This document shows positions 656 through 36,994 of a DNA stretch of 64,000 nt, one piece after another. Each line of letters starts with the position of its first letter. Positions within the stretch are counted from its first letter, which is position 1. The notes below the pieces were generated by a model, which was not told the origin of the DNA, made no database searches, and saw only the letters and a list, made by a program, of their open reading frames with translations. This DNA comes from Candidatus Poribacteria bacterium (GTDB lineage: Bacteria > Poribacteria > WGA-4E > PCPOR2b): assembly GCA_965208325.1 (NCBI GenBank), contig OZ242326.1, positions 2,880,001-2,944,000 of the forward strand. Direction: 5' to 3'. Made by a program: the position numbers and the translations under genes.

Positions 656-678
656 ACTTACCCCCATCCTTTAGACAG
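656..678. mobile_element. Inverted copy of the 23-bp end of the duplicated module
   Basis: ACTTACCCCCA-TCC-TTTAGACAG matches the reverse complement of 11181-11203 at 20/23 positions and also 36973-36994; a second TTACCCCCA lies just to its left. Confidence 0.55.
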
Positions 679-822
679 AAAATAAGGGGATTTAAGTAAT
701 AAAGTCCGACTAATTCTGGTCAATTTTCAACGCCTGAAGTTAGTGAAAATACACCTCGTATGGTGTACGGTATTCGAGCGATTGATGTGACCGCTCTCGC
801 TTGTAAAAATTGAAATAATCTC

Positions 823-879
823 TCAACCGGCGCCAAAGATTAGTCCGACAATTGCTATAAGAATCAGCCAACCTAACAT
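823..879 (-). CDS. 18-aa hydrophobic micropeptide (MLGWLILIAIVGLIFGAG)
   Basis: AGGAG RBS before ATG at 879; single hydrophobic helix. Confidence 0.4.
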   Translation of the reverse strand: MLGWLILIAIVGLIFGAG

Positions 880-940
880 CGTGATTCTCCTTATGTAAGG
901 ATTATGGGGGAGGGGGTAGCCGCCCCCTGTGGAGAAGAAG

Positions 941-1249
941 CTAAAGCCTAGGGCTAGCGACAAACATGGGAAATACATGTTCATTCCCTTCCCAGTCGGA
1001 AATAGTAATCTCTCCTCTCGAATAATCACTATCATCATGCTCGATGACAGTAACACAGACTTTTGCGTCACTATTGCGGTCCCGCACAACAATCCTTGGC
1101 AATCCTTGATCATCCATGGTCAAGTCAAGGATACCTATGATTGAAATTGTGTTGTTCTTAATCCAAATAGTGGGATTACCCTCGTCGTCTACGATTGTAA
1201 TACTTTTGCAAGTTACAGATTCATAGGTTGGATTAGTTATATCAGACAT
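941..1249 (-). CDS. Hypothetical protein, paralog family with 2360-2818 and 41137-41442
   Basis: GAGGAG RBS before ATG at 1249; motif YESVTCKSITIVDDEGNP resembles FGEIECGRLTV and FENNECRALTMSDSNGKP. Confidence 0.65.
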   Translation of the reverse strand: MSDITNPTYESVTCKSITIVDDEGNPTIWIKNNTISIIGILDLTMDDQGLPRIVVRDRNSDAKVCVTVIEHDDSDYSRGEITISDWEGNEHVFPMFVASPRL

Positions 1250-1333
1250 CGTAAATCTCCTCTTTGTAAGGGTTGTGGGGGAGGCGTAACCCTCCCTCTT
1301 TTTTCGGCAATACATACAAGTTGGTTAATTTTC

Positions 1334-1618
1334 CTAACTCATGTCGTCAGCATCTTCCGTCATGGACTCGTCGTCCACCATGGGCTCATCTTCTGTGGGT
1401 TCAGGATCGGGTTTCCTATCAGTATCTCGGTCAATGTCTCGGTCACTTTCCCGATCAACTTCCCGGTCAATGTTAATATCTCTATCGACATCGCGCTGGA
1501 AGATGTCTAGGATACGGGTAGCTTGGTCACAACCAGTTAGCGAAACCATCATTAGCGCCAACAATACGAAAACCACAGTAAACACTGTTCCAACAGCAAT
1601 GGGAGTTGTTAATTTCAT
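1334..1618 (-). CDS. Small lipoprotein with D/R-rich low-complexity tail
   Basis: AAGGAG RBS, hydrophobic signal, LTG-C lipobox, repeated DIDR/DTDR. Confidence 0.7.
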   Translation of the reverse strand: MKLTTPIAVGTVFTVVFVLLALMMVSLTGCDQATRILDIFQRDVDRDINIDREVDRESDRDIDRDTDRKPDPEPTEDEPMVDDESMTEDADDMS

Positions 1619-1645
1619 GAAATATCTCCTTCTTGGTTTAGAAAT

Positions 1646-1726
1646 GGGCGGCGCGGAACAGGGAATACAGGAGCGTGAAACCCATGGATAGGTTTCCCCT
1701 TTTTTCTACCCTATTCCGCGCCATAG
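1646..1726 (-). repeat. Member of the TATGRC...GYCRCC stem-loop family
   Basis: Minus strand ATGGCGCGGAATAGGG...CCCTGTTCCGCGCCGCCC long stem, directly before the RBS of 1334-1618. Confidence 0.7.
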
Positions 1727-1793
1727 GTTGCTTTCCAATAAAATTCAAATGTGCGAACGCGGCGTTTGCAGTGCTTACACCGCGCAGCCCGTT

Positions 1794-2216
1794 TTATAAT
1801 TTTTTTCCGTCGGGAGCGCGCATGTTCTGGGGATTAGGTTTAATGATGCGCTTCTTGCAGTGTTTGCATTTCACAGTCAATTTTCCGAGTTCAGCCCGGA
1901 TACGTTTAAAATTCTCGCTTTCCCGCATTGTAATCATGGACTGAGAACGTCTGAATATCAGCCCGTTCTTGTTTTCTTGAATTAACCTCATTTTGCTGTG
2001 TCGCCTTGCTGAATATGGGATCTCATCTTCAGTAGGCGAAAGTGACGGTTCACCTGGGGTAAATGTTATTGAAGGCGGGCCGTCGACGTGAAAGGTAACC
2101 AGAAATGCGGCAATGGGGCCGCCGTGACCAATTATCATGGATGTCTCTTCTTCGTGCTTCACAGCGATATTACATATATCGACGCGGTTATTAACTTCCA
2201 GCGTAAATTCATTCAT
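1794..2216 (-). CDS. Hypothetical protein
   Basis: 140-aa ORF, GGAGAGG RBS, CxxC near the C-terminus. Confidence 0.55.
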   Translation of the reverse strand: MNEFTLEVNNRVDICNIAVKHEEETSMIIGHGGPIAAFLVTFHVDGPPSITFTPGEPSLSPTEDEIPYSARRHSKMRLIQENKNGLIFRRSQSMITMRESENFKRIRAELGKLTVKCKHCKKRIIKPNPQNMRAPDGKKL

Positions 2217-2359
2217 GTTTCCTCTCCGTTAGAACCTGATGGAAAGTATGTTGCAGAGCCATTGTTTGAATATTTGAGGGTCAAAATCATCGGATTTTCA
2301 AGGCATGTACCCCAAAATTGCCTCCCCCGAGGACGGACCTGGTCCATTGAAAAGGGCTC

Positions 2360-2818
2360 TTAATGTTGATGTGATTCACCCGTGCGGATTTTGTCTTTAT
2401 TCCAAGTATTGACAACACCGTTACCATGTTCATTTATGCCCATGGAAGCAATGGCTTTCGTTTTACCACTAGCAATTACATACCCGCCATGTTCATCATG
2501 ACCAATGTCCACGTTCACTTTAGCGTTAGCGTCCCTTACAGTGATAGCAGGGACAATTCCCGGGTGGGTGATATACGTGGTACCGTAACGAGTACCGCCA
2601 TAAAGCAGCATGCCAGTATCCAAGAGGTGTACGACACCACGATGATAAGTGTATCCATTGACCTGCAAATCCTCGTTGACCGTCAAACGCCCACACTCAA
2701 TCTCTCCGAATTTTTCCTTTTGTGCGGATATGGGCGACAGCAGCATGCCGATAATGGTGAAAATACTGCCTAACGCCATTAGACCTAGCTTGTGCTTCCA
2801 ATTAATCAGGGGTTTCAT
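2360..2818 (-). CDS. Exported hypothetical protein (FGEIECxxLTV family)
   Basis: AAGGAG RBS, N-terminal signal/TM segment, ATGA overlap with the upstream ORF. Confidence 0.7.
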   Translation of the reverse strand: MKPLINWKHKLGLMALGSIFTIIGMLLSPISAQKEKFGEIECGRLTVNEDLQVNGYTYHRGVVHLLDTGMLLYGGTRYGTTYITHPGIVPAITVRDANAKVNVDIGHDEHGGYVIASGKTKAIASMGINEHGNGVVNTWNKDKIRTGESHQH

Positions 2819-3255
2819 TTGGTGTCTCCTTGTTGTTTCGGAACGGTGTCAATCGTCATTTTCAATTTAAGCTTTTCTTTAATACGCTCTAAATAATCAG
2901 CCATCTGATAAACACCATGATACCGCCTCACATACCAGCCGCCTATTTCTACATCACTACGGCGTTTCCGAGGACGAAACACTACTTTAGGTAGAATAGG
3001 CGGAATCCTTGCAATGCCCACTAAGGCGAGCACCTCATGAAATGTCTTATACTCTGTGTTATTTTCAACTATAGTGCCGTCTGCCATTGTGACAACCAAA
3101 TGGCGGTTAGGTTCATCAGACTTTTTGGGGATAGATGATAACCCATTTACAAACTGCATAATGACCTTACCGGTTGGACGCTGCTTCCCATACCTCTCTA
3201 CGGCTTCAGAAATAGTGTCGATCAATTGCTTCCGTTTATTATCAGAGATTGGCAT
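2815..3255 (-). CDS. Hypothetical protein
   Basis: AAGGAAGG RBS before ATG at 3255; translationally coupled to the next ORF. Confidence 0.65.
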   Translation of the reverse strand: MPISDNKRKQLIDTISEAVERYGKQRPTGKVIMQFVNGLSSIPKKSDEPNRHLVVTMADGTIVENNTEYKTFHEVLALVGIARIPPILPKVVFRPRKRRSDVEIGGWYVRRYHGVYQMADYLERIKEKLKLKMTIDTVPKQQGDTK

Positions 3256-3277
3256 AAATCCTTCCTTTTTTGTGGAA

Positions 3278-3305
3278 TTGTCCAATAAGAACCATTAGCG
3301 GACAT
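3278..3305. promoter_or_regulatory. 11-6-11 palindromic site (dif-like or operator), copy 1
   Basis: TTGTCCAATAA-GAACCA-TTAGCGGACAT. Confidence 0.55.
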
Positions 3306-3387
3306 CCCCCGCTCCCCGCCAAAAGTCCAAATTTGCGTTCTTTTATGACGGCTGTATATAGAACTGTTATGTAGGCAGCCAGATACT

Positions 3388-3585
3388 TCAGTCATTCGAC
3401 TGCTTCTTCTTGTTTGTGCTATGCGTTAACCGACGAAGGTATTCGATGTTCATGTCGATACACTTGCGGATAAGCGAGCCAAAGGAAACCCCGGTCGCAT
3501 ACTTTGCTTGTTTTAAGATAGTATCTTGCCGTTCCGTAAGTTGTATCATCACTGTGGACCGTGCGGCATCCTTTTCTCCGTTCAT
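3388..3585 (-). CDS. Ribbon-helix-helix (CopG-like) DNA-binding protein, paralog 1
   Basis: VMIQLTERQDTILKQAKYATGVSFGSLIRKCID pattern; near-identical core to 32013-32198; AAGGAGG RBS. Confidence 0.7.
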   Translation of the reverse strand: MNGEKDAARSTVMIQLTERQDTILKQAKYATGVSFGSLIRKCIDMNIEYLRRLTHSTNKKKQSND

Positions 3586-3619
3586 GGACACTTTTTCTTT
3601 CCTCCTTAAATTTGGCAAA

Positions 3620-3782
3620 GGGTGACGGGGAACGGTCTCCACTGGAGTGTTGTGTCAATGGGAATAATCTACCCGCGCCCCGCCTTATTAAATTTTGGCG
3701 GCGGCAAACAGAACCAAGGAGACGGAATTGCTCAGCGAATCGTACGAACTGTGAGCAACCCAAGAGCTGGTTGTCACCGTAC
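3620..3782 (-). repeat. Tandem pair of stem-loop family members, homologous to 33598-33759
   Basis: Stems at 3620-3688 and 3697-3782; shared linker ATTAA(A/G)TTTTGGCGG..CAAACAGAACCAAGGAGA. Confidence 0.75.
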
Positions 3783-3803
3783 TAGAGATTTTTTGTTTCT
3801 GGT

Positions 3804-6557
3804 TTACTTCACTATTGCCATGCGACGTAGTGATTGATAATCGCCCGATCGCAATTGGTAGAAATACACGCCGCTTGGCACAGTTTCACCGGACTGGTTT
3901 CTGCCGTCCCAATGCGCGGCTTGTGTCTGATTGGCGTAGAAGCCCGCGTCCCGATGCCCCAAATCGAGTTGCCGCACTAGATTGCCCTGGACGTCATAAA
4001 TCGTCAGCGTTACTTTGCCCGCGCGGGAGAGGTGGTACGGAATCCAGGTCTCCGGATTGAACGGGTTGGGGTAGTTTGGCAAGAGCGCGGTCTCTTTCGG
4101 CGTCAAGGCTGCGAGGAGGTGTTTCAGCGTGAGAACGCCGCGCTGGTATTGCGCTGTGTTTTTGCCCGTCAGCTTGGCTTCGGTTAGCCAGTGTTCGACC
4201 ATCACCGGGGACAGGTCTGTAGGCAACTGGACGCGGGCTGCCGGTGCAGCCGGTACGCTGTCTACCGCAGCGGCGACGGCGATAACGTCGTCGATGTCGA
4301 CAACCCCATCCCCGTTGACGTCCGCCGATTCTTTGCCTGTCCGCCCGTAGTGCACTGCGACGTAAACAATGTCTAGACGATCCACGCTTCCGTCGCCGTT
4401 GGCGTCCGCGATAATGGGTGGAGGCTGAGTTTCGGCAACGGCGTGAAAGGTGATTTTCTCCAACAATCCAACGGCGGATGCCTCGACAGAGTTTTTTCCC
4501 GGATTTTGCCCCAACGTCAGGGTAGTCTCCGCTTGCCCGCCGCTATCGGTCATTGCGCTTGTTGCACTGAGCTTGCCGCCGCCCACAGTGACTGTGAAAA
4601 CAATTGGAACCCCTTCAATCGGGACGTGTTTCTCGTCCAGCACTGCCACGACGAACGGGTTTTCAAGCGCTTCGCCGGCGTACGCCCGTTGATCGCTCCC
4701 CGATTGGATGCGAATCCGCGGCGGTGGTCGGCTGTCAAAACCTACCTCAACTCTTCTTTCCTGTAAGGCAGGGATGTGTAGGTAAATTGAGGCGTAACTC
4801 AAGGGGTTTCCCTGCAGATGAACCTCGTCCCCATTACCCAATCCCGTATTGGCTACCAGCGGTGAAATGTCCGAGATGTTGTTGCGCGAAAGGTCCAGGA
4901 TTGTAAGGTCGGTCAACCACGATATTGCCTTGATGTCCGAGATGTTGTTTTCCCAAAGATTCAACCGTCTCAGGTTGGTTGCCGCTTCGAGCCCAGTTAA
5001 ATTGCTGATGTTTGCGTTAGCGGCGTCAAGCATATCATCAAGCGCCGCCATTTCCGCCGGGGCAATGGGTTCACCGGCTGTTTTGTTGAGGGCATTCTCA
5101 ACCGCGGCACGGAGGTTCGGGTCGGGTATATGGATCGGAAGCCCCGCCATGGCGTTGAATGTGACCGTCTGCCCAATTCCAGCGGCGGACACCTCTACCG
5201 TGTTTTGTCCGATATTCGCGCCCAGTGTCAACACGCTCGCTGCACGGCCGCCCCGATCTGCGTGGGCGGACTCCACACTGAGCCTGCCGCCGCCGACGGC
5301 GACAGAGAATCTAACGGCAACCCCCTCAATCGGATTGCCGTTGTGCACATCTCGGACTTCAACGACAAACGGGACGAGTAACGGTGTATCCGGCAAGCCG
5401 TGTTGGTTGTCTCCTGAGACTTTCGTTAACGGCTCTAATTTTTCCGAAAACAACGTAAAGTCTCTCCACGACACATTGCCATCCGTATCAATGGCTTCAA
5501 TGGTAATCGGATGGGTAGTCGGATTAAAAAGGTTCGTGTTTCTGCTGTAAGGTAGGGAATGTGCATGGGGAATAACGCCGTCGTAATCAAAGGCAGCAGT
5601 TTCCTCTTGGTTTCCCCCCAACCCAAAACACGCCTTGACCGAACTGCCGTTGGGACTATCGGGTTGATTAACGTGTAAGATTACCTGGTGAAGTCCGTCA
5701 AAATCATGGAGGCGGGGACTGACAATGATATTACTTGCGAATGCTGAATATGAACGGGGCGAAATGAGTTCTATGGTGGGCGGCTCCCCCGCTTCAATTG
5801 GGGTGCTCTGATTGAAGTAGGTATGAACCGACAAATACACCGCATGGCATTGAGATAACCGCTTCTCATCCCGGGAACTAGGGCCATACGACATTACGTA
5901 GGCACCATCTCGGAAATCGTGGTAAAGTCCAAAGGCGTGTCCCAATTCGTGTGCGATTAGCCACCAATCAAATGCACGCAAGCAAAACGCGAATCCGCCG
6001 CGTTTTGAATATGCGCGGCCTTGACCGCCATCAATATACGCCGTCTCAAGTGTGCCCGGTCGGTCGATGAAAACGAGATAAACGTTCTCATAAAGATTGA
6101 ACGCTTCTTCAATCTCGCCAATTACAACAGGCGTACTGCCAAAGCCTTGTGGATAATGGCTGTCCGGGTATCTCCCGCCGACCTGATTCACTATCGGTTC
6201 ACCGTAAGCGTCCGTTTCAACCCGGAAGGTTTGCCGTCCGTAGCCGTGCGCTTGCATCTGATCGGCAAAAAAGCTTTGTGCGATGCTAAGCTGTTCCTTA
6301 ATTCGTTTCACCACTTGTTCCCGATACGGGCGGTCATTGGGTAAAAAGTAAATTATGCGCACGGTGCGTGTTGTTCCGACATTCAGAGCAAGGGTTTTGG
6401 AGCGGGCATCTGGGTGCGTGCCGCGCTTATGGTACTGATGTCCGGTAAACCCGCAGTAATGAGCTGCCGATTTAGGCGGGGCGGCAAGCGCGGCGGTTAG
6501 GTTAACAAGGCACAAAAGCACCGTGCAAAGCGATAACCGAAAAAATCGGATTTTCAC
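3804..6557 (-). CDS. Secreted zinc metallopeptidase-like protein with Ig-like (Big_1), LRR, dockerin-like and FlgD-Ig/T9SS-like C-terminal domains
   Basis: Signal peptide, HELGHAFGLYH (HExxHxxGxxH), SGDNQ Big_1 repeats, internalin-type LRR, DANGDGSVD dockerin, NYPNPFNPETWIPY. Confidence 0.9.
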   Translation of the reverse strand: MKIRFFRLSLCTVLLCLVNLTAALAAPPKSAAHYCGFTGHQYHKRGTHPDARSKTLALNVGTTRTVRIIYFLPNDRPYREQVVKRIKEQLSIAQSFFADQMQAHGYGRQTFRVETDAYGEPIVNQVGGRYPDSHYPQGFGSTPVVIGEIEEAFNLYENVYLVFIDRPGTLETAYIDGGQGRAYSKRGGFAFCLRAFDWWLIAHELGHAFGLYHDFRDGAYVMSYGPSSRDEKRLSQCHAVYLSVHTYFNQSTPIEAGEPPTIELISPRSYSAFASNIIVSPRLHDFDGLHQVILHVNQPDSPNGSSVKACFGLGGNQEETAAFDYDGVIPHAHSLPYSRNTNLFNPTTHPITIEAIDTDGNVSWRDFTLFSEKLEPLTKVSGDNQHGLPDTPLLVPFVVEVRDVHNGNPIEGVAVRFSVAVGGGRLSVESAHADRGGRAASVLTLGANIGQNTVEVSAAGIGQTVTFNAMAGLPIHIPDPNLRAAVENALNKTAGEPIAPAEMAALDDMLDAANANISNLTGLEAATNLRRLNLWENNISDIKAISWLTDLTILDLSRNNISDISPLVANTGLGNGDEVHLQGNPLSYASIYLHIPALQERRVEVGFDSRPPPRIRIQSGSDQRAYAGEALENPFVVAVLDEKHVPIEGVPIVFTVTVGGGKLSATSAMTDSGGQAETTLTLGQNPGKNSVEASAVGLLEKITFHAVAETQPPPIIADANGDGSVDRLDIVYVAVHYGRTGKESADVNGDGVVDIDDVIAVAAAVDSVPAAPAARVQLPTDLSPVMVEHWLTEAKLTGKNTAQYQRGVLTLKHLLAALTPKETALLPNYPNPFNPETWIPYHLSRAGKVTLTIYDVQGNLVRQLDLGHRDAGFYANQTQAAHWDGRNQSGETVPSGVYFYQLRSGDYQSLRRMAIVK

Positions 6558-6691: not shown

Positions 6692-9616
6692 TTATTTCAC
6701 GATTACCATCCGCCGGAGCGCGTTATAATCGTCCGTTCGGAGTTGATAGAAATAGGCGCCGCTAGCGACGGCTTCGCCGTTTTCGTTCCTGCCGTCCCAA
6801 TAGGCAGCGCGGGTTTTCTCGATATACACGCCCGCCCGTTGATGACCTAAATCCAACTGTCGAATTAGGGCGCCGTTTAAGTCGTAAATCGAGATTTGGA
6901 CGTCCGAACCCGTCGCTAACCGGTAAGGTATCCAGGTCTCCGGATTAAACGGATTTGGATAGTTTGGCAGAAGTGCGGTCTCTTTCGGCGCCAAGACTGC
7001 GAGGAGTTGCTCCAACGTGAGAATGCCGCGCTGGTATTGCGGCGTGTTTTTGCCGGCCAGCTTGGCTTCGGTTAACCAGTTTTCGACCATTTCCGCGGTC
7101 AGGTCTCTAGGCATCGCCGCACGGGCTGCCGGCGCAGCGGCTACGCTGTCTACCGCGGCGGCGACCGCGATAATGTCGTCGATGTTCACAACGCCGTCGC
7201 CGTTGATGTCCGCTGCACCTTGGCTTGTCTGTCCGTAGTGCAATGCGACATAGACAATGTCTTGGACATCTACGCTGCCGTCACCGTTGGCGTCGGCGTC
7301 TTTGGCTTCGACGGTCTCATCTTCGGTTTCGTCATCCGGGTCTTTCGATTCGATCGGTTGCGGAGAGGCGTTAATGGCAATGGAGGACGGGCGATCCATG
7401 CCGCTTGCGATAACATCTTCAACGTTGGATGCGTCCAAATTGGCACGCCGGACTGTTTCATCACGCCAATCTGTCCAATATATTTTTCGATTGTCGATAT
7501 CTAAGTCTAAGCTGTGCACCCCCGCTAATTCTGTAACGACGTCTTCGACATTTGAACCATCCAAGTCGGCACGCTGGATTTTTCTCGCGGCAGCATCTGT
7601 CCAGTACATTTTCCCGTCTGCAACATCTAGGGCAATGCTGGTTGGCGCCTGCAATCCTGTGACGAGGTCTTCGACATTTGTGCCATCCAAGTCGGCGCGC
7701 TGGATTTTATTCGTGCCGTCATCTGTCCAGTACATCTGACCGCCATCAACATCTAACGCCAAACCGCTTGGAATGCGCAAACCGCGTGTCAGGAGGTCTT
7801 CAACGTTTGAACCGTCTAAGTCGGCACGTTGGATTTTATCGGTGCCGTTATCTGTCCAATACATCTTACCGGCCGCAACATCTAGGGCAATGTCTTTCGT
7901 CCCTTTCAATCCTTGTGTCACAAGGTCTTGGACGTTTGCGCCGTTCAAGTCGGCGCGTTGAATTTTATCCGTGCCGGAATCTGTCCAGTACATGTGTCCG
8001 CCGGTAACATCTAGGGTTAAACCGCTTGGTTGTTGCAGACCGCGCTGAACTAGGGTTTCGATGCGTGAAGCGTCGGAGCTGGCTGCGCGGATGCTCATTG
8101 TGCCGCGGTCGATCCAGTAAATGGCAAGCGGCTTCTGTTCACGGACGGCGGCGACGGGAACGTTTGCGGTGAGCGAACTGCCGCTGTAGCTTGCGATGCC
8201 GCCGGCGCGCACACTGAACGACAACGTCGCATTTGTGTCAAAGTCGGTGCCGTCAAAAGCGAGTACAATCGTAATCTGCGTGTCACTTTCGCGCCGAACC
8301 CTATTAACAGTAACACCTGCAATCCCGGAAACCATCACGGCGTTACTGATGCGGGACAAAGACTGTTCCCATGCACCGTTCCTCAATGTGAGCGCCACAT
8401 CGCTTCCGTCTAACACCGTCTCTGTTAAGGGCGCCGAAGTTGAGGCGTGTAGCGTCGGTTCCTTTTTCGCCTCCACTGTAATACGCACGCTCGCAGAACA
8501 GTTGTTAGTTTTGTCACTCTCGTTTGCAACACTATCGACGCATGCGCCGAAATAGTAGGTTCCGGCAGATGTTGGGGCCGTAAGACTGATGCTCTCGGCA
8601 CTCCTCCCATTAGCATTAAGCGCGCTAACACTGGCCGTGCCGACCGCTGTATCGCTAGTCGAAATCGTGGAATCGGCCGAGCGGTAGTAGCGCAGCGTGG
8701 TCGCGGCCGCACTGCTTGTGCCGCTATTTCTGACGGCGGTGGACAGCGTAAAATTTTCGCCGGCGGTTAAGTCGCTTTTACTGACTGTCGGACGGTCAAC
8801 GATTAAGTCCGGCGAGTCCGATTGAACCTCCACCGTGATACGCACGCCGGCGGAGCAGTTGTTGTCAGAATTGCTCTCGTCCGCAACTGCGTCAACACAA
8901 GCGCCGTAGTAGTAGGTGCCGGCAGATGCAGGGGCGGTGAGACTGATACTCTCGGCACTCGTCCCATTTGCATTCAGCGCGTTAACGCTGTCCGTGCCGA
9001 CTGCTGTATCGCTGGACGAAATCGTGGCATCGGTCGAGCGATAGTAGCGCAGCGTGGTGGCAGCGGCACTGCCAGTGCCGCTATTTCTGACGACCGTCGA
9101 CAGCGTAAAGCTTTCGCCAGGCGTTAAGGTGTTTTTACTCACGGTTGGGTGGTCAACGACTAAATCCGATTGTTCAGATTCGGCACAGGTTGGCGCGTTG
9201 CTAAAACGTGTCACAACCCAAACTTCACCACTCTTTACAAAGCGGAACCAATTGAAATCAACTTCTGTAGGTTCTGAAATAAGAACATTTGTTGCACCTG
9301 CGAGTTGTACAACACCGTATCCGTCACTTCTATGAGCAACCAAAAGTAGACTCTCGGCACCGCTGCTGTTCACAACAAGGTCTGCTGCAAAGGTGTCTCT
9401 CGGAAATTGAAGACCGACACAGATTTCCGGTGCACGGTCTATTAAGTCTCCTGCTAAAGCCGTGTCTCCGGCCTTAATTGCCGCTTGCAAATCGCTGTAT
9501 TTTGAGCTTACAGGAACTTGACTCTGGCTGAAACCAACATCTGGCAACCCACACACCAACACTATTACGATGAGAATTGACAAGGCAACTTTTCGACTTA
9601 TGATAAACATGGCCAT
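6692..9616 (-). CDS. Secreted protein with two CARDB-like Ig domains, YWTD (LDL-receptor class B) propeller, dockerin-like and FlgD-Ig/T9SS-like C-terminal domains
   Basis: Repeated MYWTD..IQRADLDG motifs, duplicated TLRYYRS..GACVD units, same C-terminus as the neighbouring gene. Confidence 0.9.
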   Translation of the reverse strand: MAMFIISRKVALSILIVIVLVCGLPDVGFSQSQVPVSSKYSDLQAAIKAGDTALAGDLIDRAPEICVGLQFPRDTFAADLVVNSSGAESLLLVAHRSDGYGVVQLAGATNVLISEPTEVDFNWFRFVKSGEVWVVTRFSNAPTCAESEQSDLVVDHPTVSKNTLTPGESFTLSTVVRNSGTGSAAATTLRYYRSTDATISSSDTAVGTDSVNALNANGTSAESISLTAPASAGTYYYGACVDAVADESNSDNNCSAGVRITVEVQSDSPDLIVDRPTVSKSDLTAGENFTLSTAVRNSGTSSAAATTLRYYRSADSTISTSDTAVGTASVSALNANGRSAESISLTAPTSAGTYYFGACVDSVANESDKTNNCSASVRITVEAKKEPTLHASTSAPLTETVLDGSDVALTLRNGAWEQSLSRISNAVMVSGIAGVTVNRVRRESDTQITIVLAFDGTDFDTNATLSFSVRAGGIASYSGSSLTANVPVAAVREQKPLAIYWIDRGTMSIRAASSDASRIETLVQRGLQQPSGLTLDVTGGHMYWTDSGTDKIQRADLNGANVQDLVTQGLKGTKDIALDVAAGKMYWTDNGTDKIQRADLDGSNVEDLLTRGLRIPSGLALDVDGGQMYWTDDGTNKIQRADLDGTNVEDLVTGLQAPTSIALDVADGKMYWTDAAARKIQRADLDGSNVEDVVTELAGVHSLDLDIDNRKIYWTDWRDETVRRANLDASNVEDVIASGMDRPSSIAINASPQPIESKDPDDETEDETVEAKDADANGDGSVDVQDIVYVALHYGQTSQGAADINGDGVVNIDDIIAVAAAVDSVAAAPAARAAMPRDLTAEMVENWLTEAKLAGKNTPQYQRGILTLEQLLAVLAPKETALLPNYPNPFNPETWIPYRLATGSDVQISIYDLNGALIRQLDLGHQRAGVYIEKTRAAYWDGRNENGEAVASGAYFYQLRTDDYNALRRMVIVK

Positions 9617-9754: not shown

Positions 9755-9895
9755 TCGGCGGATAAACCACCGCACCCGAACCAGAAGGACCCGGCGCGCT
9801 GGACATACCACCAAGACCTCGCTTACCCGAATAGGCGTCCTATTTGACCATTCGGGTATCCGGCGGCAATCTGCGTTAGCCCGGTTGCCGCCATA
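9755..9895 (-). ncRNA. Candidate three-hairpin leader RNA (motif X), homologous to 34381-34524 and partly 32311-32366
   Basis: Conserved TGGTATRTC...CCGG-loop-CGGGTRCG and GGACGCCTATT; stems kept despite sequence change. Confidence 0.5.
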
Positions 9896-9972
9896 CAGAC
9901 AATGTTGTATGCCAGCAATGTGAACGCAATAATTTCCACTGTTGAAGCAAACGTGGGGTTTTCATTGATTTC

Positions 9973-30361: not shown

Positions 30362-30442
30362 ATGAATCATTCAGCGCCGCTGATTACTATTCACGTCGGA
30401 GTATTCACCCTAACGCACTAATCGCTGGCGGCAAAAGCCGTT

Positions 30443-31657
30443 TTACGGCGACACCGCTTCGTTTGCGGCGAAAGGCACTAGGTTGCCGTCCTTGATAGTC
30501 AGCACAACCGGTTCGTAAAGCGCTTCGCCCTCCGCGTCAAATGAGAAGTGCCCGAGGTTGGTGCCAAAGTCGTGCACCGTAGCCAAAGCATCGCGAATGG
30601 ACATTGAATCCGGAATCGTAATTGACGCAGAATCCTCTGAAAATGTCGCCTCTAAAATCGCGTGGTAAAGGATGTAAAGCGCCGCGTATGACTGAGCTGC
30701 CCATGGGTCCGGCGCGATTCCGTATGCCGCTTGGTAACCGGCAACAAACGACTGATTCATCGGATTGTCCACTGTGCTATCCCAACCGGTGAAAGTGATA
30801 ACGCCGTCCGCCGCGGCGCCCGCTTGTTGAATATCGTTGATACCTAATTCCGGAACGATATAATCCGCCTCAATGCCAATCTCCCGTGCCTGTACCACCA
30901 CGCTCACGATTTCGGGAGCCAGACCTGAAACAAAGAGCGCGTCCGGGTTAACTTCCATTATCGCGGTCAATTGCGCTGTGAAGTCGGTGTCGCCGGATTG
31001 GTACGTCTCGGTCAACAACACATCCACGCCGCGGTTCAAAAGCGCCGCCGCCAAGTGTTCGTAGCTGCTCGTGGAGTAGAGATCGGCGTCGTCATATATC
31101 ATGGCCGCGCTTTCATAACCGATCGCCTCATGCGTAATGTTCACACCCGCCGGATTCATCTTATCTACGGCTAGGGCGGCGCGAAAAATGTAATCCCCGA
31201 TGCTGCTCAGACTGGCGGCGGCTGACACGGAACTTAAAACCACAACCTGATTCTCTTGCGCTATCGGGAAAGCGTGCTGGGCTTGATTCGATATGGCAAC
31301 ACCCACAATAGCGGGAACGCCCGCCTGAATCAGCCGTTCAAACGCGGATTCCATGCCGTCTTGGGTGCTCATGTCATCCTCGACAAGGAAATTAATCGTA
31401 AGCAGATTGTTCGGCAGCCCGTTGATTTCGTCGCGTGCAAGATTAAAACCGCGCTCCATCGATAGACCATACGGCGCAGCGTACTCGCCCGTGAGCGGCG
31501 CAACCAAGCCGATGTCAATCGAAGCAGGGGCTTCAATATCAGAACCGTCGTCCGTTTGGGTCAATAGTTCAGCTACTATATCGCAACCGCAAAGCCCGGC
31601 AACGAGACCGATAACCGCAGTTGCGAAAACGAATAGGGAGATGCCTGTTCTAATCAT
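30443..31657 (-). CDS. LivJ/K-type ABC substrate-binding lipoprotein
   Basis: Lipobox, IGLVAPLTG, GDTDFTAQL, AAQSY. Confidence 0.9.
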   Translation of the reverse strand: MIRTGISLFVFATAVIGLVAGLCGCDIVAELLTQTDDGSDIEAPASIDIGLVAPLTGEYAAPYGLSMERGFNLARDEINGLPNNLLTINFLVEDDMSTQDGMESAFERLIQAGVPAIVGVAISNQAQHAFPIAQENQVVVLSSVSAAASLSSIGDYIFRAALAVDKMNPAGVNITHEAIGYESAAMIYDDADLYSTSSYEHLAAALLNRGVDVLLTETYQSGDTDFTAQLTAIMEVNPDALFVSGLAPEIVSVVVQAREIGIEADYIVPELGINDIQQAGAAADGVITFTGWDSTVDNPMNQSFVAGYQAAYGIAPDPWAAQSYAALYILYHAILEATFSEDSASITIPDSMSIRDALATVHDFGTNLGHFSFDAEGEALYEPVVLTIKDGNLVPFAANEAVSP

Positions 31658-31854
31658 TGGGTGACTTTCCTTTGTTTGGATTTTTGGGTTATAGGTTTTA
31701 CGCCTTCAATACGTTTTAGGAAGTCCTCAACCTCATGGTGGGTTGGACGGCGTCCGCAGAGACGTTTGGCTGCGTCCGCGATGGTATCTAACAACTCATC
31801 CTCTTCGATTAGTTTTTGCGTTTCGCCGCGGAAATCTTCAGGAGAATCGCGCAT
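31654..31854 (-). CDS. Small hypothetical protein
   Basis: AAGGAAG RBS before ATG at 31854; ATGA overlap with the downstream gene. Confidence 0.55.
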   Translation of the reverse strand: MRDSPEDFRGETQKLIEEDELLDTIADAAKRLCGRRPTHHEVEDFLKRIEGVKPITQKSKQRKVTQ

Positions 31855-31915
31855 TGTTCTTCCTTTCACCACGCATGTAACGCCGTCAGTCGGCGTAATT
31901 GAATTTTGCAATAAA

Positions 31916-31991
31916 GGCGACGGGTGCAGGAATACTCTGATACAGAGTAAATCCGCAGGATTGGACCTTTTTTCCCGCGCCCCGTCATAAG
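31916..31991 (-). repeat. Stem-loop family member
   Basis: GGCGACGGGTGCAGGAA...TTCCCGCGCCCCGTCATAAG. Confidence 0.75.
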
Positions 31992-32012
31992 ACAACCATA
32001 TATGTGCAAGGC

Positions 32013-32198
32013 TTAATCCTTCTCCTTCGCGTTAATAGTCAACCGGCGAAGGTACTCAATATTCATGTCGATACACTTCCGAATAAGCGAGCCAAACGAA
32101 ACTCCGGTCGCGTTCTTGGCTTCTTTCAAGATAATTTCCTGCCGTTCCGTAAGGCGAATCATCACGTGGGATTGGGTGTCCTCTTTGTCGTTGTTCAT
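32013..32198 (-). CDS. Ribbon-helix-helix (CopG-like) protein, paralog 2
   Basis: Core near-identical to 3388-3585; preceded by stem-loop 32233-32302, similar to 3620-3688. Confidence 0.7.
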   Translation of the reverse strand: MNNDKEDTQSHVMIRLTERQEIILKEAKNATGVSFGSLIRKCIDMNIEYLRRLTINAKEKD

Positions 32199-32392
32199 GG
32201 ACACGTTATAGTACCCCCTTTCTTTTAACCATGAGCGACAGGGAACGGATTGACACAAGAGAGTTGGGGCAATGAAAAGTGCTTTACCCGCGCCCCGTCA
32301 TGCGTTGTTCGTCGGTAGAAAAACCGCACCCGGACCACGCTGACCGGGTTTGATAGACATACCACCTAAATTGCCGTGCTGCTATTAGTAGG

Positions 32393-33565
32393 TTATTCAA
32401 AGAATTCCAATTGACCATCGGCGACAATCAATATTTTCGGCTCGTAAACCGCATCCCCGACGGCGTCAAAAGAGAACTTACCGAAGACAGTGTCGAAATC
32501 CGCGATATTTGCCAATGCGTCACGAATTGCGGTTGCGTCAGTGGATTCGGCGTTGGCAACGGCTTCCGCCAGAACATGGAGCGTGGTGTAAGACCGCGCC
32601 GCGGAATTACTCGGCTCCACGCCGAATTTGGCGCGATAGTTCTGGACAAAGGCAGCATTTCCCGGTGTGTCGGCTGTGCTTACCCACCCGACGAAAGTAA
32701 TCGCCCCCTCGGCAGCCGCACCCGCTGCACGTACGTCAGCTATGGTCAAGGTTCGCATAACAAACGGCACCGAGTCGGGTATACCGAGTTGGCGCCGTTG
32801 GGTCAGAATTCCCGGTTTTTCCGGCGATAAAGAGGAGACAAAGATAATATCGGGATTTGCGTCCCTTATCCGAGATAATTGTTCGCTAAAGTCGGTGTCG
32901 CCGCCTTGAAACGTTGCTGTAACCAATACCTCGACGCCCTTCGCGGCAAGCGATTCCCTCACCGCCGCATCGCTATCCGTAGAGAAGACATCGCTTTCAT
33001 CGTACATCGTAGCGGCTTTTTGATAGCCGAGTTTTGCGTAAGTCGCCTCAATACCGCTTGGAATCAGCACGTCTGTGGTGAGAGAGACACGAAATGCATA
33101 ATCGCCAATCGCGCTGAGACCGCGTCCGGCGGATGTTGGGCTAAACGCCACCACCTGATTCTCTTGCGCAATCGGGAACACGACTTCTGCCTGACCCGAC
33201 GTGGCGGGACCGAGAATAACGGATATGCCATCCTGTTGAATCAGTTTATTGAATGCTTCAACCGCACCCTCAATGGTGCTTCGATCATCCTCTACGATAA
33301 ACTTGATGCTTCTCTCTCCGAGTTTTGAGTTGTTAATCTCTTCGAGAGCAAGTTCATAGCCGTTGACCGTGGGTTCCCCAAATGTAGAGGTAAGCCGTCC
33401 CGTAATGGGTAGCACAACACCGATGGGAATCTCTACACTCACATCTTCCATATCAGGCGGCGCGGGGAGGAGTAGTTGCCCAATCTGGTCACAAGCGGAA
33501 AGCCCAATTATGAAGAGGACTATCGCCGGTACAAACGAAAATGCTGTAATTCTTCCGATATACAT
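32393..33565 (-). CDS. LivJ/K-type ABC substrate-binding lipoprotein
   Basis: LSA-C lipobox, IGVVLPITG, GDTDFSEQL; likely start ATG at 33565. Confidence 0.9.
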   Translation of the reverse strand: MYIGRITAFSFVPAIVLFIIGLSACDQIGQLLLPAPPDMEDVSVEIPIGVVLPITGRLTSTFGEPTVNGYELALEEINNSKLGERSIKFIVEDDRSTIEGAVEAFNKLIQQDGISVILGPATSGQAEVVFPIAQENQVVAFSPTSAGRGLSAIGDYAFRVSLTTDVLIPSGIEATYAKLGYQKAATMYDESDVFSTDSDAAVRESLAAKGVEVLVTATFQGGDTDFSEQLSRIRDANPDIIFVSSLSPEKPGILTQRRQLGIPDSVPFVMRTLTIADVRAAGAAAEGAITFVGWVSTADTPGNAAFVQNYRAKFGVEPSNSAARSYTTLHVLAEAVANAESTDATAIRDALANIADFDTVFGKFSFDAVGDAVYEPKILIVADGQLEFFE

Positions 33566-33597
33566 TTTGACATCCGTTGTTTTGAAATGAAAAATTT

Positions 33598-33759
33598 GGG
33601 CAGACGGGACACGAATTGACATAGGAGTTTCGTTTCCATGGGACAATTTATCCGCACCCCGCCATATTAAGTTTTGGCGGTGACAAACAGAACCAAGGAG
33701 ATTGTATTATCCACAGCACTTACAAACTATGAGCAACACAAAAACTGTTTGCCACCATA
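33598..33759 (-). repeat. Tandem pair of stem-loops, homologous to 3620-3782
   Basis: Stems at 33598-33667 and 33676-33759. Confidence 0.75.
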
Positions 33760-33766
33760 CGAGAGA

Positions 33767-34351
33767 TTACTGCGATTCTGCCAACGCAATCACACCGCAG
33801 CCGATTCGCGCGCCGGCAGCCCCTGAGGGCTGGGACGTAAAGTCGTCGGCGCCGGCATGGACGATTATGCCTTTTCCGACAACGTCGCGGATGGAACCGG
33901 TACCGATTTCCCAAAGGTCTGTCGCCAATTCGATTTTGCCGGTGCCGTCCTCGCCAACCATTATATTGCCAATGTCTCCGAGATGAAATTCGCCCTCACC
34001 CCATTTGCCGTGGGAGGTGTTCGTCGGATTCCAGTGCCCGCCTGCCGATGTCCCGTCCGGTGCGCTGCAATCACCGTATTCGTGGATATGAACTGCGCGG
34101 AGCCCTGGTTCCGCGTTCTGAATCTCAATGGTCAGCGCGATTGTGTCTCCGATTTGTTCGAAAACCGCCGTACCGGTTACATTGCTTCCGCTTGTCGAAC
34201 CTATCGATGCGTGTGCCTGTTCTGACGGCGGCGGCGGCAAAAGGTCAGCCAAATCCTGTACCGCATCACAACTCAGAAAAGCAATCGAAACGGCAATCAC
34301 CAGTGACAGCATTAAGGCTTGTCTTCCAAACACGTTAACCCCTTTTTTCAT
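33767..34351 (-). CDS. sodC: Cu/Zn superoxide dismutase (lipoprotein)
   Basis: HIHEYGDC, AGGHWNP, HLGDIGN, IIVHAGADD, GARIGCG; AAGGAG RBS before ATG at 34351. Confidence 0.93.
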   Translation of the reverse strand: MKKGVNVFGRQALMLSLVIAVSIAFLSCDAVQDLADLLPPPPSEQAHASIGSTSGSNVTGTAVFEQIGDTIALTIEIQNAEPGLRAVHIHEYGDCSAPDGTSAGGHWNPTNTSHGKWGEGEFHLGDIGNIMVGEDGTGKIELATDLWEIGTGSIRDVVGKGIIVHAGADDFTSQPSGAAGARIGCGVIALAESQ

Positions 34352-34380
34352 CGTTAACTCCTTTCGCTTTACTCCATCAA

Positions 34381-34524
34381 ATGGTAGAAAACGTACCCGA
34401 GCTACGCCGCCCGGCTGCGCTCGATATACCACTAAACTCGGGACTATTCTTGCCCAAATAGGCGTCCTGTACGCCTATTCGGTTACTCGACGACTACCGG
34501 GGTTAACCCGGCTCTCGCCATAAG
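34381..34524 (-). ncRNA. Candidate leader RNA motif X, second full copy
   Basis: Homologous to 9755-9895; immediately 5' of sodC. Confidence 0.5.
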
Positions 34525-34655
34525 GTGGCGGGGAATTACTGCGATGGGAAAGGAAGGGTATTTCAGCCCCAATTAAAACCATCGCAGCCGCCCGTCATAA
34601 CGGGTTATCTGTTTACTTTGCCATTCACGATTTTCACAATCGCCTAAGCACCGCA

Positions 34656-34943
34656 TCAAGCTTTACCGCTGGAATTTGCTCTGTCCACTCGTTCAAATTC
34701 GCAACTAAGGCTATCCATAACAAGCGTAAGTACATGTCCGTCCTGCCAATGCGATAAGCAATTGACGAGCGTGTATAAAAAGTGTCTGGCATCTTCGGGT
34801 TTCGTTCCGACAGGCAATCGTATTTGACTAGTTCCAAGGTATAAATCTAATTTAAATAACCGAATCGACTTGATATTGTCCGCATTGATAAACCATATTT
34901 TGTCATCGTTGGCATTACAAGGGACAATGTAAATCCATCTCAT
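34656..34943 (-). CDS. Small hypothetical protein
   Basis: 95-aa ORF bracketed by two stem-loops; GAAGG RBS. Confidence 0.55.
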   Translation of the reverse strand: MRWIYIVPCNANDDKIWFINADNIKSIRLFKLDLYLGTSQIRLPVGTKPEDARHFLYTLVNCLSHWQDGHVLTLVMDSLSCEFERVDRANSSGKA

Positions 34944-35407
34944 GGGCTATTACCTTCGTTCGTAATAAGGCGGCGGGGACAGGAGCAGTGTTAGTTGTTC
35001 TATCGATTGGCTAGATTCCCCCACTCCCGTCATAAGCAAAACAGTTACGTTAAAAGGCGGCAGGCAACAGGGATAAGGAAGAATACGTTAGGCGATCGCA
35101 CATAACGCCTAATCATCAAAAAACCCTGCCGCCCGCCATAAAAACTTGACTTGCTTTCATTTTGCGTTTCACCGTCCGCGGCACAACCGGCGGTTGCGTC
35201 CGTATCCGCAAAATGTGCAAAGTCCCTTTCGCCCGCTGTGCGCGCCACTGAATAATTCAAGTGTATCCATGCCGAACTGCGGGCAATATGTTGGGACTTT
35301 TTTCAGACTGGGTATTTTTTAGTTTTTTTTTGTGTCTATATTCGTAACAAAACGCCTTTCGCGCCAGACATAAGAGCGTATTGGTTTAGATGTTCGTTAA
35401 AATCAAT

Positions 35408-35497
35408 CTAGAGGAGATGCTCTAGCATGAAAGTAACAACGCCAGCAAGTAATCCAATAATGAAAAAATAAAGGAGTAGAAAACCAAAATTGAACAT
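35408..35497 (-). CDS. 29-aa hydrophobic micropeptide
   Basis: GGAGG RBS; MFNFGFLLLYFFIIGLLAGVVTFMLEHLL. Confidence 0.5.
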   Translation of the reverse strand: MFNFGFLLLYFFIIGLLAGVVTFMLEHLL

Positions 35498-35845
35498 TGT
35501 TTCACCTCCATTTGCCGAAATAAGTGAGGGGGCAAGTGCGGGGGTGGTCGGTGTCCCGTTGATAAACATAGGAGCGCGCTTCACGTCATGAGTTGATACA
35601 TAGAGCATCGCAATCAGTGCCGCCCGCCAAACAACCGTGCCAAGCAATCAGTATGTGTTTCACCTAAGGCGGATTGATAGAAAGGGTGACGAGGGCGAGC
35701 GTTTGCGTTACACTCTGAAATCCATCGACAAATGAGTCCCCCGCCCCGTCTTAAGACCTCTGTCAGTATTGTTAATCCGACCGGTCTTGACGATCTCAGC
35801 GATACTTTATTCTCCGATTGAAGACAATGGTCTCTATCAGGAAAT

Positions 35846-36205
35846 CTATCCAACTTCCGCGTGGGCAGACCAAGTGCTAAATGATTCTCCTGATGCATCA
35901 AGCTTGATGTTCATCTTTTCACCCGGCGGCAAGGGCAAGTAGCTTGGCATAGTTGGGCCTAGTTCTGTGCCATTTGACAGATGGACTTCAACTCTAACGC
36001 GTTGCAGTGTACTGCTGGTGGTATTTTCTACCGTACCAACAAACGCCCTTGTTGCGGCATCGTAGTTGAGTATTAACCTTGCACCGCTTCGTACATCATC
36101 ATAAGTGTCGCCTTTGGCAAGCATTTGTAACGATTCTTCGTCCTCTACCGTGCCGCAAGCGAGGATAGCGATCAGCACCGTGAGTAAAACAATGTTGAAT
36201 TTCAT
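35846..36205 (-). CDS. Small lipoprotein with Ig-like (FxLYD-like) domain
   Basis: ILA-C lipobox; GTVENTT..TL.RVRVEVHL..G. Confidence 0.75.
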   Translation of the reverse strand: MKFNIVLLTVLIAILACGTVEDEESLQMLAKGDTYDDVRSGARLILNYDAATRAFVGTVENTTSSTLQRVRVEVHLSNGTELGPTMPSYLPLPPGEKMNIKLDASGESFSTWSAHAEVG

Positions 36206-36299
36206 TTGATTGTCCTTTTTTGTAATTTAAGCATACAAATTCAACTGGGGCGGAAAGGTATTATGTAGCCTACCATTTAGCTATTGCATCATGCCCTAA

Positions 36300-36994
36300 A
36301 ACAGAAGCAACCGCCATAAGGTCAATTTAAATAAAATATAGGGAATTCCCTTCCCTCCTTCTATTCCTCGGCGAGAGGGAGCGGCAGGCATCACGGAGCC
36401 GTGATGTCGCCTCCTGCTGCGGGAAGGAAAATTGGATGCGTCAATCTCTTGGACCGGCCGGATCAGAGAAAGACGAATTGGCTCTCATAGTATGGCACAA
36501 ACCGTGCCAACGGTCGGACCAAGGAAGGGTTCAACTCTGTAGAGACGGATAAATCCAGTGGTAGTCTAGGTTCGATGGATATGCGAAGCAGCCGGGCGGG
36601 CAGTTAGCGTGACAGGGTGCAGGTTGAAAAAGTATCAAAATGAGACTGGAAAGGCGTGCAAAAATAGAGGAATTCGGCGGGGAATCCTGTAATGACGCGG
36701 GATGCGGGCGTTTATCTCAAAATAGGACTGAGTCTCATTTTGGGACAAATGTAAGAGGGTTTAAGGGCGGACTATTTCATTCAAAAAAAATATCGTTTTT
36801 TTGGCACAACTTTTTCAAGTTTTATTTATTTTCCGGTAATTTCTGAGTCATGTGCGGCGCGGTTAGGAAACTGAATCTACCGGAATGGGCCGCGCAGTTT
36901 ATACAACTTCAATTTCCGATAAAGTGTTGATTGACCAATCTTCAATGCTTACACCGTAATGGACTAGTATGACTGTCTAACATTGGGGGTAAGT
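36300..36994 (-). repeat. ~690-bp non-coding module, copy 2
   Basis: Direct repeat of 10513-11203. Confidence 0.9.
36493..36509 (-). promoter_or_regulatory. sigma54-like -24/-12 promoter
   Basis: TGGCACGGTTTGTGC (GG-N10-GC) on the minus strand; also reads TGGCACAAACCGTGC on the plus strand. Confidence 0.6.

Follow-up and report, generated by a model that had tools for sequence, protein, structure and literature searches.

Enhancer-dependent sigma-54 promoters, such as glnAp2 with its activator NtrC and pspA with PspF, are served by an activator protein and by sites upstream of the promoter. In Myxococcus xanthus a sigma-54-dependent small RNA, Pxr, is encoded beside its activator PxrR, and in the pdif (XerC/D-site) modules of Acinetobacter plasmids short palindromic sites bracket genes that are moved by an unlinked host recombinase. 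Sigma-54 regulons have been reconstructed, with the promoter consensus quoted as TTGGCATNNNNNTTGCT (PMC6615313), and government of the bacterial exterior has been put forward as a theme of sigma-54 (PMC3162934). The stretch of DNA analyzed here (the window, 64,000 nt; G000:C1:2880001-2944000) lies within a single 4.7-Mb contig of a Candidatus Poribacteria bacterium, an organism known from metagenome assemblies only, and carries on its minus strand two gene arrays, A and B, that each begin with a copy of the same 0.7-kb module. An earlier, sequence-only reading saw in these arrays an integron-like gene-capture platform; it seems rather likely that they are instead paralogous sigma-54 operons which were reshaped by duplication, by homologous and insertion sequence (IS)-linked recombination and by gene turnover, and that no recombination platform is involved.

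The shared module, its predicted sigma-54 promoter and its leader

BLASTN comparison of array A (1-11500) with array B (29300-37400) gives exactly four collinear blocks, all on the minus strand. These are the module (10513-11203 and 36300-36994, 89.4% identity over 698 columns), a hairpin-rich unit called leader X (9790-9895 and 34410-34522, 70%), a double hairpin (3644-3790 and 33624-33768, 77.5%) and a ribbon-helix-helix (RHH)-like gene with its own leader (3425-3682 and 32038-32297, 75%); non-homologous genes fill the intervals between them. In a genome-wide BLAST search, leader X and the double hairpin match at these two places only (two of each in 4.7 Mb) and the long module at one further place, so chance matching is excluded. 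The sequence-only description of two arrays with homologous, identically ordered units and unrelated genes between them is thus confirmed, its gene identities (CARDB/YWTD, peptidase/LRR, sodC and two LivK genes) agree with a Pfam scan, and the partial X that it placed behind the first LivK gene (LivK1) is real (A 9759-9815 matches B 32313-32369). Other parts of it need correction: what was called the "broken lipoprotein" in A is a disrupted open reading frame (ORF) for a small hydrophobic peptide, with no lipoprotein demonstrated at that place, and the two "empty hairpins" counted as units of array B belong to other multi-copy repeat families, with up to 29 other matches in the genome.

Four copies of the promoter region are present in this genome (A, B, C and D) and six in the congeneric genome G002. 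Twelve long copies, drawn from three genera, align with a constant order of three palindromes, a -24/-12 motif and a conserved stem-rich leader. The palindromes lie 122-236 nt upstream of the predicted promoter; their positions are conserved and their sequence (e.g., GTCCCAATATGGGAC) varies with the paralogue. TTGGCAC is invariant in all 12 copies, and the full motif reads TTGGCAC-N5-(T/G)TG(C/T). Sigma-54 itself is encoded in the genome (rpoN; PF04552, 200.7 bits, G000 59505-59981). Copy C (3.648 Mb) lies directly behind an intact bacterial enhancer-binding protein (bEBP) gene with response regulator (RR), PAS, Sigma54_activat and HTH_8 domains, and module block 46-100 is the 3′ end of the intact bEBP ORF in copies C, G2e, G2f and G1b. 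A and B have the -24/-12 elements, the palindromes and a genomic rpoN, with an intact bEBP at C, and of an activator of their own they keep the last 22 codons only. The module, previously called non-coding, is to that extent a gene remnant. The idea of one shared promoter holds in that both arrays begin with the same predicted sigma-54 -24/-12 promoter on the coding strand, from which the genes behind would be transcribed as an operon. A coding role for the module and leader was considered and rejected (similarity is equal in all six frames, indels distinguish the copies and the helices change in a compensatory way), as was a short ORF after the leader beginning MAVGSV, whose frame is not kept among copies.

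All five activator-less copies (A, B and copies b, c and d of G002) start at the same nucleotide, with a 47-nt palindrome followed by the last 22 bEBP codons and their stop. The same 47-mer ends two elements of at least 600 nt that lie beside an ORF with an rve domain (PF00665, E 5e-19). These IS copies (G000:C1:3306587-3307207 and 3740859-3741473, locus L059) are 94% identical and their rve ORF looks split or short (165 aa); the 47-nt end recurs as a solo end at ∼10 places in the genome. The upstream activating sequence (UAS) part of the module is 95% identical between A and B and 79% between A and its G002 counterpart G2b, and the five G002 copies are 84-95% identical; the promoter-leader part tracks orthology slightly better (A-G2b 86%, A-B 83%). 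The module copies cluster by genome and not by locus; judged from these identities, the promoter copies evolve in concert within each genome.

Gene order outside the modules points the same way as the IS end. G002 is collinear with the window from 35557 to 11307 (the content of array B through a histidine kinase gene), and collinearity ends at module A. The A-like module of G002 lies elsewhere (3.04 Mb), with a flank that in G000 lies upstream of B. As direct repeats with 89% identity, modules A and B flank a 25.8-kb segment, and the main difference between the two genomes, the location of the array, maps to the 0.7-kb module repeats and the IS end and not to hairpins; a breakpoint at such repeats is what homologous or IS-linked recombination characteristically leaves. 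A scan of the 12 kb upstream of module B revealed no transposase or integrase, and the genes there include a HerA/NurA-like pair, a fragment of LivK and a PorV-like porin; a helix-turn-helix (HTH) protein at 37228-38007 has weak transposase-HTH hits only.

Parts of the module were matched in 28 of 41 related genomes. At ten module loci in other genera a bEBP gene lies directly upstream in nine and directly downstream in the tenth. The genes downstream differ from locus to locus (leucine-rich repeat [LRR] proteins together with proteins bearing a type IX secretion system [T9SS] tail, trypsin-YWTD-CARDB cargo, tetratricopeptide repeat [TPR] protein with small ORFs, PKD/Ig proteins, TRL with cytochrome P460), and in the 72 of 140 listed ORFs that were scanned at these ten loci they encode mostly secreted proteins. 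Copy D (2.3687 Mb), an orthologue of G002 copy "a", shares the palindromes and promoter but not the leader and precedes other secreted proteins (of 408 and 1639 aa, plus lipoproteins). Such secreted or exterior cargo behind the modules fits the published sigma-54 exterior theme as stated in PMC3162934. A literature search on Poribacteria and sigma-54 found no related paper, and was too limited for absence to be claimed. The palindromes and promoter of copy D, which has no conserved leader, lie outside the window at G000:C1:2368670-2368810 (minus strand). At three loci of other genomes (L028 in G017, L029 in G007 and L031 in G022) small genes follow the leader in a conserved series that starts with a TPR protein (100-147 aa) and continues with proteins of ∼97, 89, 122, 80, 69 and 228 aa, and the ORFs after the TPR gene have no Pfam match at any of the three. 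In G001 a module fragment is present at each of two loci (L020 and L021), and behind it lies a giant ORF, highly repetitive (∼98-aa repeats) and up to 3982 aa long.

Even a second family of the order retains ∼85% identity over the final 150 nt of the module, and the flanks diverge. A search for this leader in 151 genomes of the order found 34 copies in 20 genomes (13 of 28 genomes in family f1, 6 of 11 in f3, none of 104 in f2 and none of 7 in f4), and TGGCA(C/T) is present at the aligned upstream place in 30 of the 34. The remaining four copies (G069_1, G010_1, G024_1 and G006_1) have no -24/-12 motif at that place; by eye, G006_1 has TTGACA-17 nt-TATACT there, as if the RNA unit can follow a sigma-70-type promoter. 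RNAalifold recovers three helices from the leader copies. In a five-helix drawing 90.9% of cells are paired, compared to 41-56% when the partners are slid, the covariation score lies above 500 of 500 shuffles, and the strongest single covariation is one pair that is UA in 18 copies, GC in 7 and CG in 7. Directly after the core both window copies have a terminator-like hairpin and U-tract; with 5-7 pairs, of which 3 are G-C, the hairpin is weak, and the U-tract is interrupted. Rfam has no match with E≤1 to the module or leader in 9600-11400, and at gathering threshold its only match in the whole window is a thiamine pyrophosphate (TPP) riboswitch away from the arrays; a hairpin-ribozyme hit was discarded as chance level (18.7 bits against a gathering score of 65). 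The leader is probably a cis-acting attenuator or a small RNA. As a ∼100-nt folded RNA that spans two families and has no Rfam match, it is a candidate of either kind for specialists in such molecules.

The leader could also be read as a free-standing sigma-54-dependent small RNA with its own terminator, in which case the arrays would share a small RNA gene and the cargo genes would be transcribed separately. The hairpin and U-tract right behind the core in both modules would suit such a gene, as would a core more conserved across two families than its flanks, the four copies that lack a -24/-12 motif, and three G002 copies that lose homology just past the core, near position 637. On the other hand, the hairpin is weak and its U-tract broken, same-strand genes lie 0.2-1.3 kb behind the unit in most loci, and copy D has the promoter and no leader yet leads straight into genes. 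This is a lesser but real possibility.

On the operon interpretation, which is preferred here, the 0.7-kb module would be the control region of the regulon of one enhancer-binding activator. From the aligned motifs we infer that activator dimers bind the three palindromes and that sigma-54 polymerase binds at the -24/-12 elements 120-240 nt downstream. The transcript would start with the folded ∼100-nt leader, which ends in the weak terminator-like hairpin and, as attenuator or small RNA, probably gates read-through into the genes behind. At one module copy in this genus the activator gene would have received an IS insertion, after which the IS end, the 22-codon remnant, promoter and leader would have been copied, and homogenized among loci, by IS-linked and homologous recombination.

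Hairpin units and the exchange of genes

Several hairpins form in the predicted folds of both leader X and the double hairpin (z-scores between -1.1 and -4.2); these values come from RNA folding, which was used instead of an inverted-repeat finder that missed most hairpins. The double hairpin begins right behind the upstream stop codon. Among related genomes the module is widespread, and X is found in 3 of 41 relatives and the double hairpin in 2 of 41, always at these loci. Neither has an Rfam match. Exact-pattern scans, which diverged copies would escape, gave 32 stretches in 185,579 species genomes, 30 of which match the pattern only, and homology beyond the pattern was present in G002's own two only; all 12 stretches from a metagenome-collection scan were likewise pattern-only. 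The sequence TTGGTTCTGTT has six sites in the genome, four of them in module tail or double-hairpin units (2.3 expected), and its presence in both the double-hairpin center and the module tail fits local duplication. As a general mark of junctions it was rejected, since it joins the module tail and double hairpin only and the other junctions lack it. A putative core common to X and the double hairpin, TA[TC]GG[CT]G[AG][CG]A[AG][AC]C, was also rejected, with 10 genome hits against ∼9.4 expected, four of which are the source hits.

X, the double hairpin and the RHH-like gene would then be the remains of an older duplication of a whole operon. Homology of the post-module stretch extends over A, G2b, C and G2e, and the RHH-like copies each follow a module, so the ancestral operon may have consisted of the module, a small peptide gene, a slot, the RHH-like gene and LivK; it would have been duplicated before the split of G000 and G002, and the slot genes would have turned over thereafter. 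The two hairpin units were most likely kept as intercistronic RNA hairpins (terminator, stabilizer or 5′-untranslated region elements), around which genes for secreted and periplasmic proteins would have been gained, lost or replaced.

Several observations weigh against this account. The -12 element of A reads TTGT instead of TTGC, and, as neither A nor B has its own activator gene, the idea that the locus C activator controls them in trans is based on similar palindromes only. Covariation in the leader is thin, most pairs being invariant, and the terminator-like hairpins after the leader and in leader X of B could end transcription, in which case the downstream genes may need promoters of their own. 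The remaining points concern the edges of the hairpin units. Between X and the double hairpin, A and B differ almost exactly ORF for ORF, from ribosome-binding site to stop, which random indels would hardly yield. LivK1 is flanked by two diverged ∼70-nt leader copies (L1 and L2), and the L2 homology begins inside the 3′ arm of hairpin 2. The A-like array of G002 keeps the first 74 nt of X (89% identical) and loses homology right after X hairpin 2; this island has other genes on each side, two extra ones before it and a different 99-aa ORF after it. Finally, the variant of B in G002 and strain X6 has an extra double-hairpin unit where G000 and strain X5 carry a lipoprotein gene. Three or four breakpoints between relatives thus lie at or beside hairpin units, and differences between relatives sit at hairpin repeats. 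Repeated palindromic intergenic units favor unequal crossing-over and slippage, so these breakpoints can be explained with no new enzyme.

The same edges speak for the cassette explanation, in which X, the double hairpin and the short leaders all serve as a new type of recombination site and ORF-sized cassettes are moved behind one promoter, as in an integron, by an unlinked host recombinase. It can draw on the ORF-precise A/B differences, the leader copies that bracket LivK1 with a junction in a hairpin arm, and the X hairpin pair as an island amid non-homologous genes; the hairpins are preserved by compensatory changes (e.g., GGCGT/ACGCC and GGAA/TTCC), and a shared predicted promoter is present. 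But no one site family flanks every supposed cassette: X is unlike the double hairpin, each has only 2-3 copies with no enriched core, and other junctions have unrelated multi-copy repeats. The units are absent from 38-39 of 41 relatives and have no real match in the collection scans, and the ∼70-nt duplicated flanks, at ∼60-70% identity, are unlike the traces of site-specific insertion. No attC-like RYYYAAC...GTTRRRY pair was seen by eye.

Gene order and recombinases bear on the cassette explanation as well. Array B has the same gene order in G000, G002 and the independent strain X5 (a single 3,508-nt contig from LivK1 through the module), and its sole polymorphic segment has two states only, the lipoprotein gene or the extra double-hairpin unit; X4 is not counted as independent, as it comes from the same study as the best-matching read sets X1-X3, one of which is possibly the source sample of the window. 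Two kinds of read joint were set aside: one in X7 from 31207 to 33138, which connects the two LivK paralogues across 22 foreign letters, has a side of 26 letters and is probably from another organism or a paralogue, and joints at 27.6-30.0 kb that fall within multi-copy repeats. A profile search of the genome found four tyrosine recombinases, two Y1 transposases and no serine recombinase, and no tyrosine, serine or Y1 recombinase near any module; PF00589 is matched at just four positions (1.05, 1.67, 2.34 and 2.97 Mb), of which the closest to module B is ∼54 kb away, so that no integron integrase is adjacent. The sequence-only observation that the window encodes no recombinase is thus extended to about 54 kb, and the recombinase that it supposed might be linked consistently to the module was not found. 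Of its proposal that genes are exchanged at or between stem-loops, gene turnover and breakpoints beside hairpins stand and cassette exchange does not; the integron/CALIN-like platform with its own site consensus is not supported by two unlike, few-copy units with no linked recombinase. Such a platform would be a major finding, and the evidence is insufficient for it; cassettes moved in this way are very unlikely.

In a related interpretation, the hairpin units would be slow recombination hot spots at which ORF-sized pieces are swapped into sigma-54 operons by a hairpin-recognizing host enzyme or by replication-template switching. We consider this highly improbable; if true, sponge symbionts would have in the activator regulon an array, specific to their lineage, that captures genes for secreted, eukaryote-like proteins. 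X and the double hairpin could also be decayed non-autonomous mobile elements of the miniature inverted-repeat transposable element (MITE) or repetitive extragenic palindrome (REP) kind that inserted themselves, with the shared A/B order partly coincidental. The sharp-edged 74-nt X island and the additional double-hairpin unit in G002 and X6 are what such elements might leave, and the genome is rich in MITE/REP-like repeats. However, dispersed copies of the two units are not found, all being in the two paralogous arrays with none elsewhere in 4.7 Mb; the alignments display no terminal inverted repeats or target duplications, and the units are collinear with the module and RHH-like gene and confined to two genomes of a single genus. 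A mobile-element origin is thus improbable, and retention from a duplicated sigma-54 operon is preferred for both units.

Genes of the arrays and their neighbors

The features of the two arrays are listed in Table 1. The small-peptide ORF behind module A is broken in both A and G2b by an ATG to ATA change and a 1-nt deletion relative to locus C and G002. The CARDB/YWTD and metallopeptidase/LRR genes have no close orthologue in three congeners (G001-G003). Toward their 3′ ends the T9SS-type cargo genes of array A, two in number, are alike (84% identity between 4034-4333 and 6922-7221), and cargo genes at 14278-14605, 18964-19291 and 25291-25516 carry this C-terminal module as well.

The RHH-like gene has three copies in the genome (A, B and C), each behind a module. 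Searched against Pfam and NCBIfam, copies A and B hit no RHH family even at E≤0.01, and the one NCBIfam hit of B is ribosomal protein S5, far below cut-off; copy C has sub-threshold hits to DUF6290, NikA-like and RelB families. A structure model (predicted local distance difference test [pLDDT] 75) has an extended N-terminus and helices at 22-35 and 39-66, and its top Foldseek neighbors are RHH proteins, with E values of only 1.9-7.7; a profile search of solved structures gave only hits with E 0.6-0.8, to an unrelated helix. The RHH fold assigned to this small gene on sequence alone is plausible and unproven.

Table 1. Features of arrays A and B in window coordinates
Feature	Position	Strand	Basis or remark
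PAS histidine kinase gene upstream of module A	11318..13444	-	Pfam; G002 3825197-3827741 92% identical; G002 synteny ends at 3′ side
Solo IS end (rve-type), imperfect palindrome, module A positions 1-47	11157..11203	-	Edge shared by activator-less copies
bEBP gene remnant, module A, last 22 codons (LKIGQSTLYRKLKLYKLRGPFR) and stop	11085..11153	-	Homologous to intact bEBP 3′ ends
Three putative activator-site palindromes, module A	10846..10960 (10946-10960, 10928-10942, 10846-10860)	-	Copy alignment
Predicted sigma-54 -24/-12 promoter, module A, TTGGCACGGTTTTTGT	10709..10724	-	One mismatch to TGGCAC-N5-TTGC
Structured leader A, P1-P4 core	10543..10639	-	Terminator-like hairpin 10568-10552 and U-tract
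Post-module region A, broken small hydrophobic-peptide ORF	9896..10512	-	Homologous to G2b (85.6%), locus C and G2e
Leader X of A, three hairpins just upstream of CARDB/YWTD gene	9755..9895	-	Alignments; fold z-score -2.5
CARDB / LDL-receptor-YWTD repeat protein, T9SS-type C-terminal domain	6692..9616	-	Pfam
Metallopeptidase-like / LRR / Big_1 / dockerin protein, T9SS-type C-terminal domain	3804..6557	-	Pfam
Double hairpin A and ∼70-nt leader, before RHH-like gene	3592..3790	-	Contains TTGGTTCTGTT, also in module tail
RHH-like small gene, copy A	3388..3591	-	
Tail of small ORFs, array A	656..3285	-	No family match; partly conserved in G002 A-like array
Solo IS end, module B	36948..36994	-	Same 47 nt as in A
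Three putative activator-site palindromes, module B	36632..36746	-	UAS part 95% identical to A
Predicted sigma-54 promoter, module B, TTGGCACGGTTTGTGC	36495..36510	-	Promoter motif, copy alignment
Structured leader B	36331..36427	-	Terminator-like hairpin 36356-36340
119-aa lipoprotein, FxLYD domain	35846..36205	-	NCBIfam NF038353, E 1e-6; segment replaced in G002 and strain X6
95-aa ORF	34656..34943	-	88% in G002
Leader X of B, ends ∼25 nt before sodC ribosome-binding site	34381..34524	-	z-score -4.2; terminator-like third hairpin
sodC, Cu/Zn superoxide dismutase, lipoprotein-type signal	33767..34351	-	Sod_Cu, E 6.5e-38
Double hairpin B and first leader copy (L1), upstream of LivK1	33566..33768	-	z-score -3.1
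LivK-type periplasmic binding lipoprotein 1 (Peripla_BP_6)	32393..33565	-	Pfam
Partial leader X (3′ hairpin and U-tract), then second leader copy (L2), upstream of RHH-like gene B	32205..32369	-	
RHH-like small gene, copy B	32013..32204	-	
113-aa ORF and LivK-type binding protein 2 (Peripla_BP_6)	30443..31995	-	Pfam
Two "empty hairpins", multi-copy intergenic repeat families D12-D14	∼29334-29549, 29955-30066	-	Raised read depth there

The window also carries other repeats and genes. Runs of a 7-nt repeat (GTAATGC/GTAATGA type, family D3) lie just upstream of minus-strand genes at 14106-14263, 23619-23699, 24545-24597 and 27594-27667. Intergenic repeats of ∼60-105 nt (D12-D14) lie upstream of minus-strand genes at 73-133, 18820-18925, 23687-23901, 24303-24518, 29334-29549 and 29987-30047, and some of these families have tens of copies genome-wide. 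The TPP riboswitch is at 60600-60710 on the minus strand (66.9 bits against a gathering score of 54.3), neighboring genes for a NurA-like protein and a HerA/DUF87-like ATPase at 45384-48180 (minus strand) may form a defense or repair pair, and the truncated LivK-type fragment is at 44582-45211.

Comparison with known systems

If the operon interpretation is right, this sponge symbiont rewires which secreted and surface proteins answer one signal by copying an enhancer-promoter-leader unit in front of new genes, aided by the IS end and by recombination between module copies. The proteins so rewired would be YWTD/CARDB, LRR and Ig-domain T9SS-type proteins, a periplasmic superoxide dismutase and solute-binding lipoproteins. 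The closest parallel is with the enhancer-dependent sigma-54 promoters, with which these loci share the -24/-12 motif, palindromes 120-240 nt upstream, an adjacent RR-PAS-AAA+-HTH_8 gene and a genomic rpoN. They differ in that the module is multi-copy (four copies, and six in G002), in that two of the G000 copies have lost the activator gene to an IS, and in the conserved structured leader with no Rfam match that lies behind the promoter.

The layout of an activator gene, a sigma-54 promoter and a short structured transcript is also that of PxrR/Pxr; here same-strand protein genes follow, and the RNA may be a cis-acting leader. The pdif modules exemplify the type of mechanism that cassettes in these arrays would require, but the hairpins here lack, by eye, the 11-6-11 dif layout, no inverted pairs surround modules, and only two loci are involved.

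[quoted passage not shown] (2016; PMC4889954), the arrays have in common a promoter at one end, unrelated ORFs on the same strand, hairpin-forming spacers and, as in CALIN, no nearby integrase. Unlike them, the arrays have no attC-type site family, no IntI and no sign of cassette mobility across genomes, and they have ∼70-nt duplicated flanks; moreover, the promoter predicted here is an activator-dependent sigma-54 promoter, whereas that of the integron is the constitutive Pc. The cargo, which is largely secreted, periplasmic or lipoprotein, again resembles that of the sigma-54 exterior theme (PMC3162934). In their duplication the enhancer-promoter modules are akin to the promoter reuse treated as putative mobile promoters by Nijveen, Matus-Garcia and van Passel (2012; PMC3575422), with which they share similar upstream regions before non-homologous genes, an RNA motif and an association with IS ends. 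The unit here is a full assembly of enhancer, sigma-54 promoter and leader (∼450-690 nt), and, different in this from the mobile promoters of that account, it belongs with a single activator family and is conserved in two families of the order.

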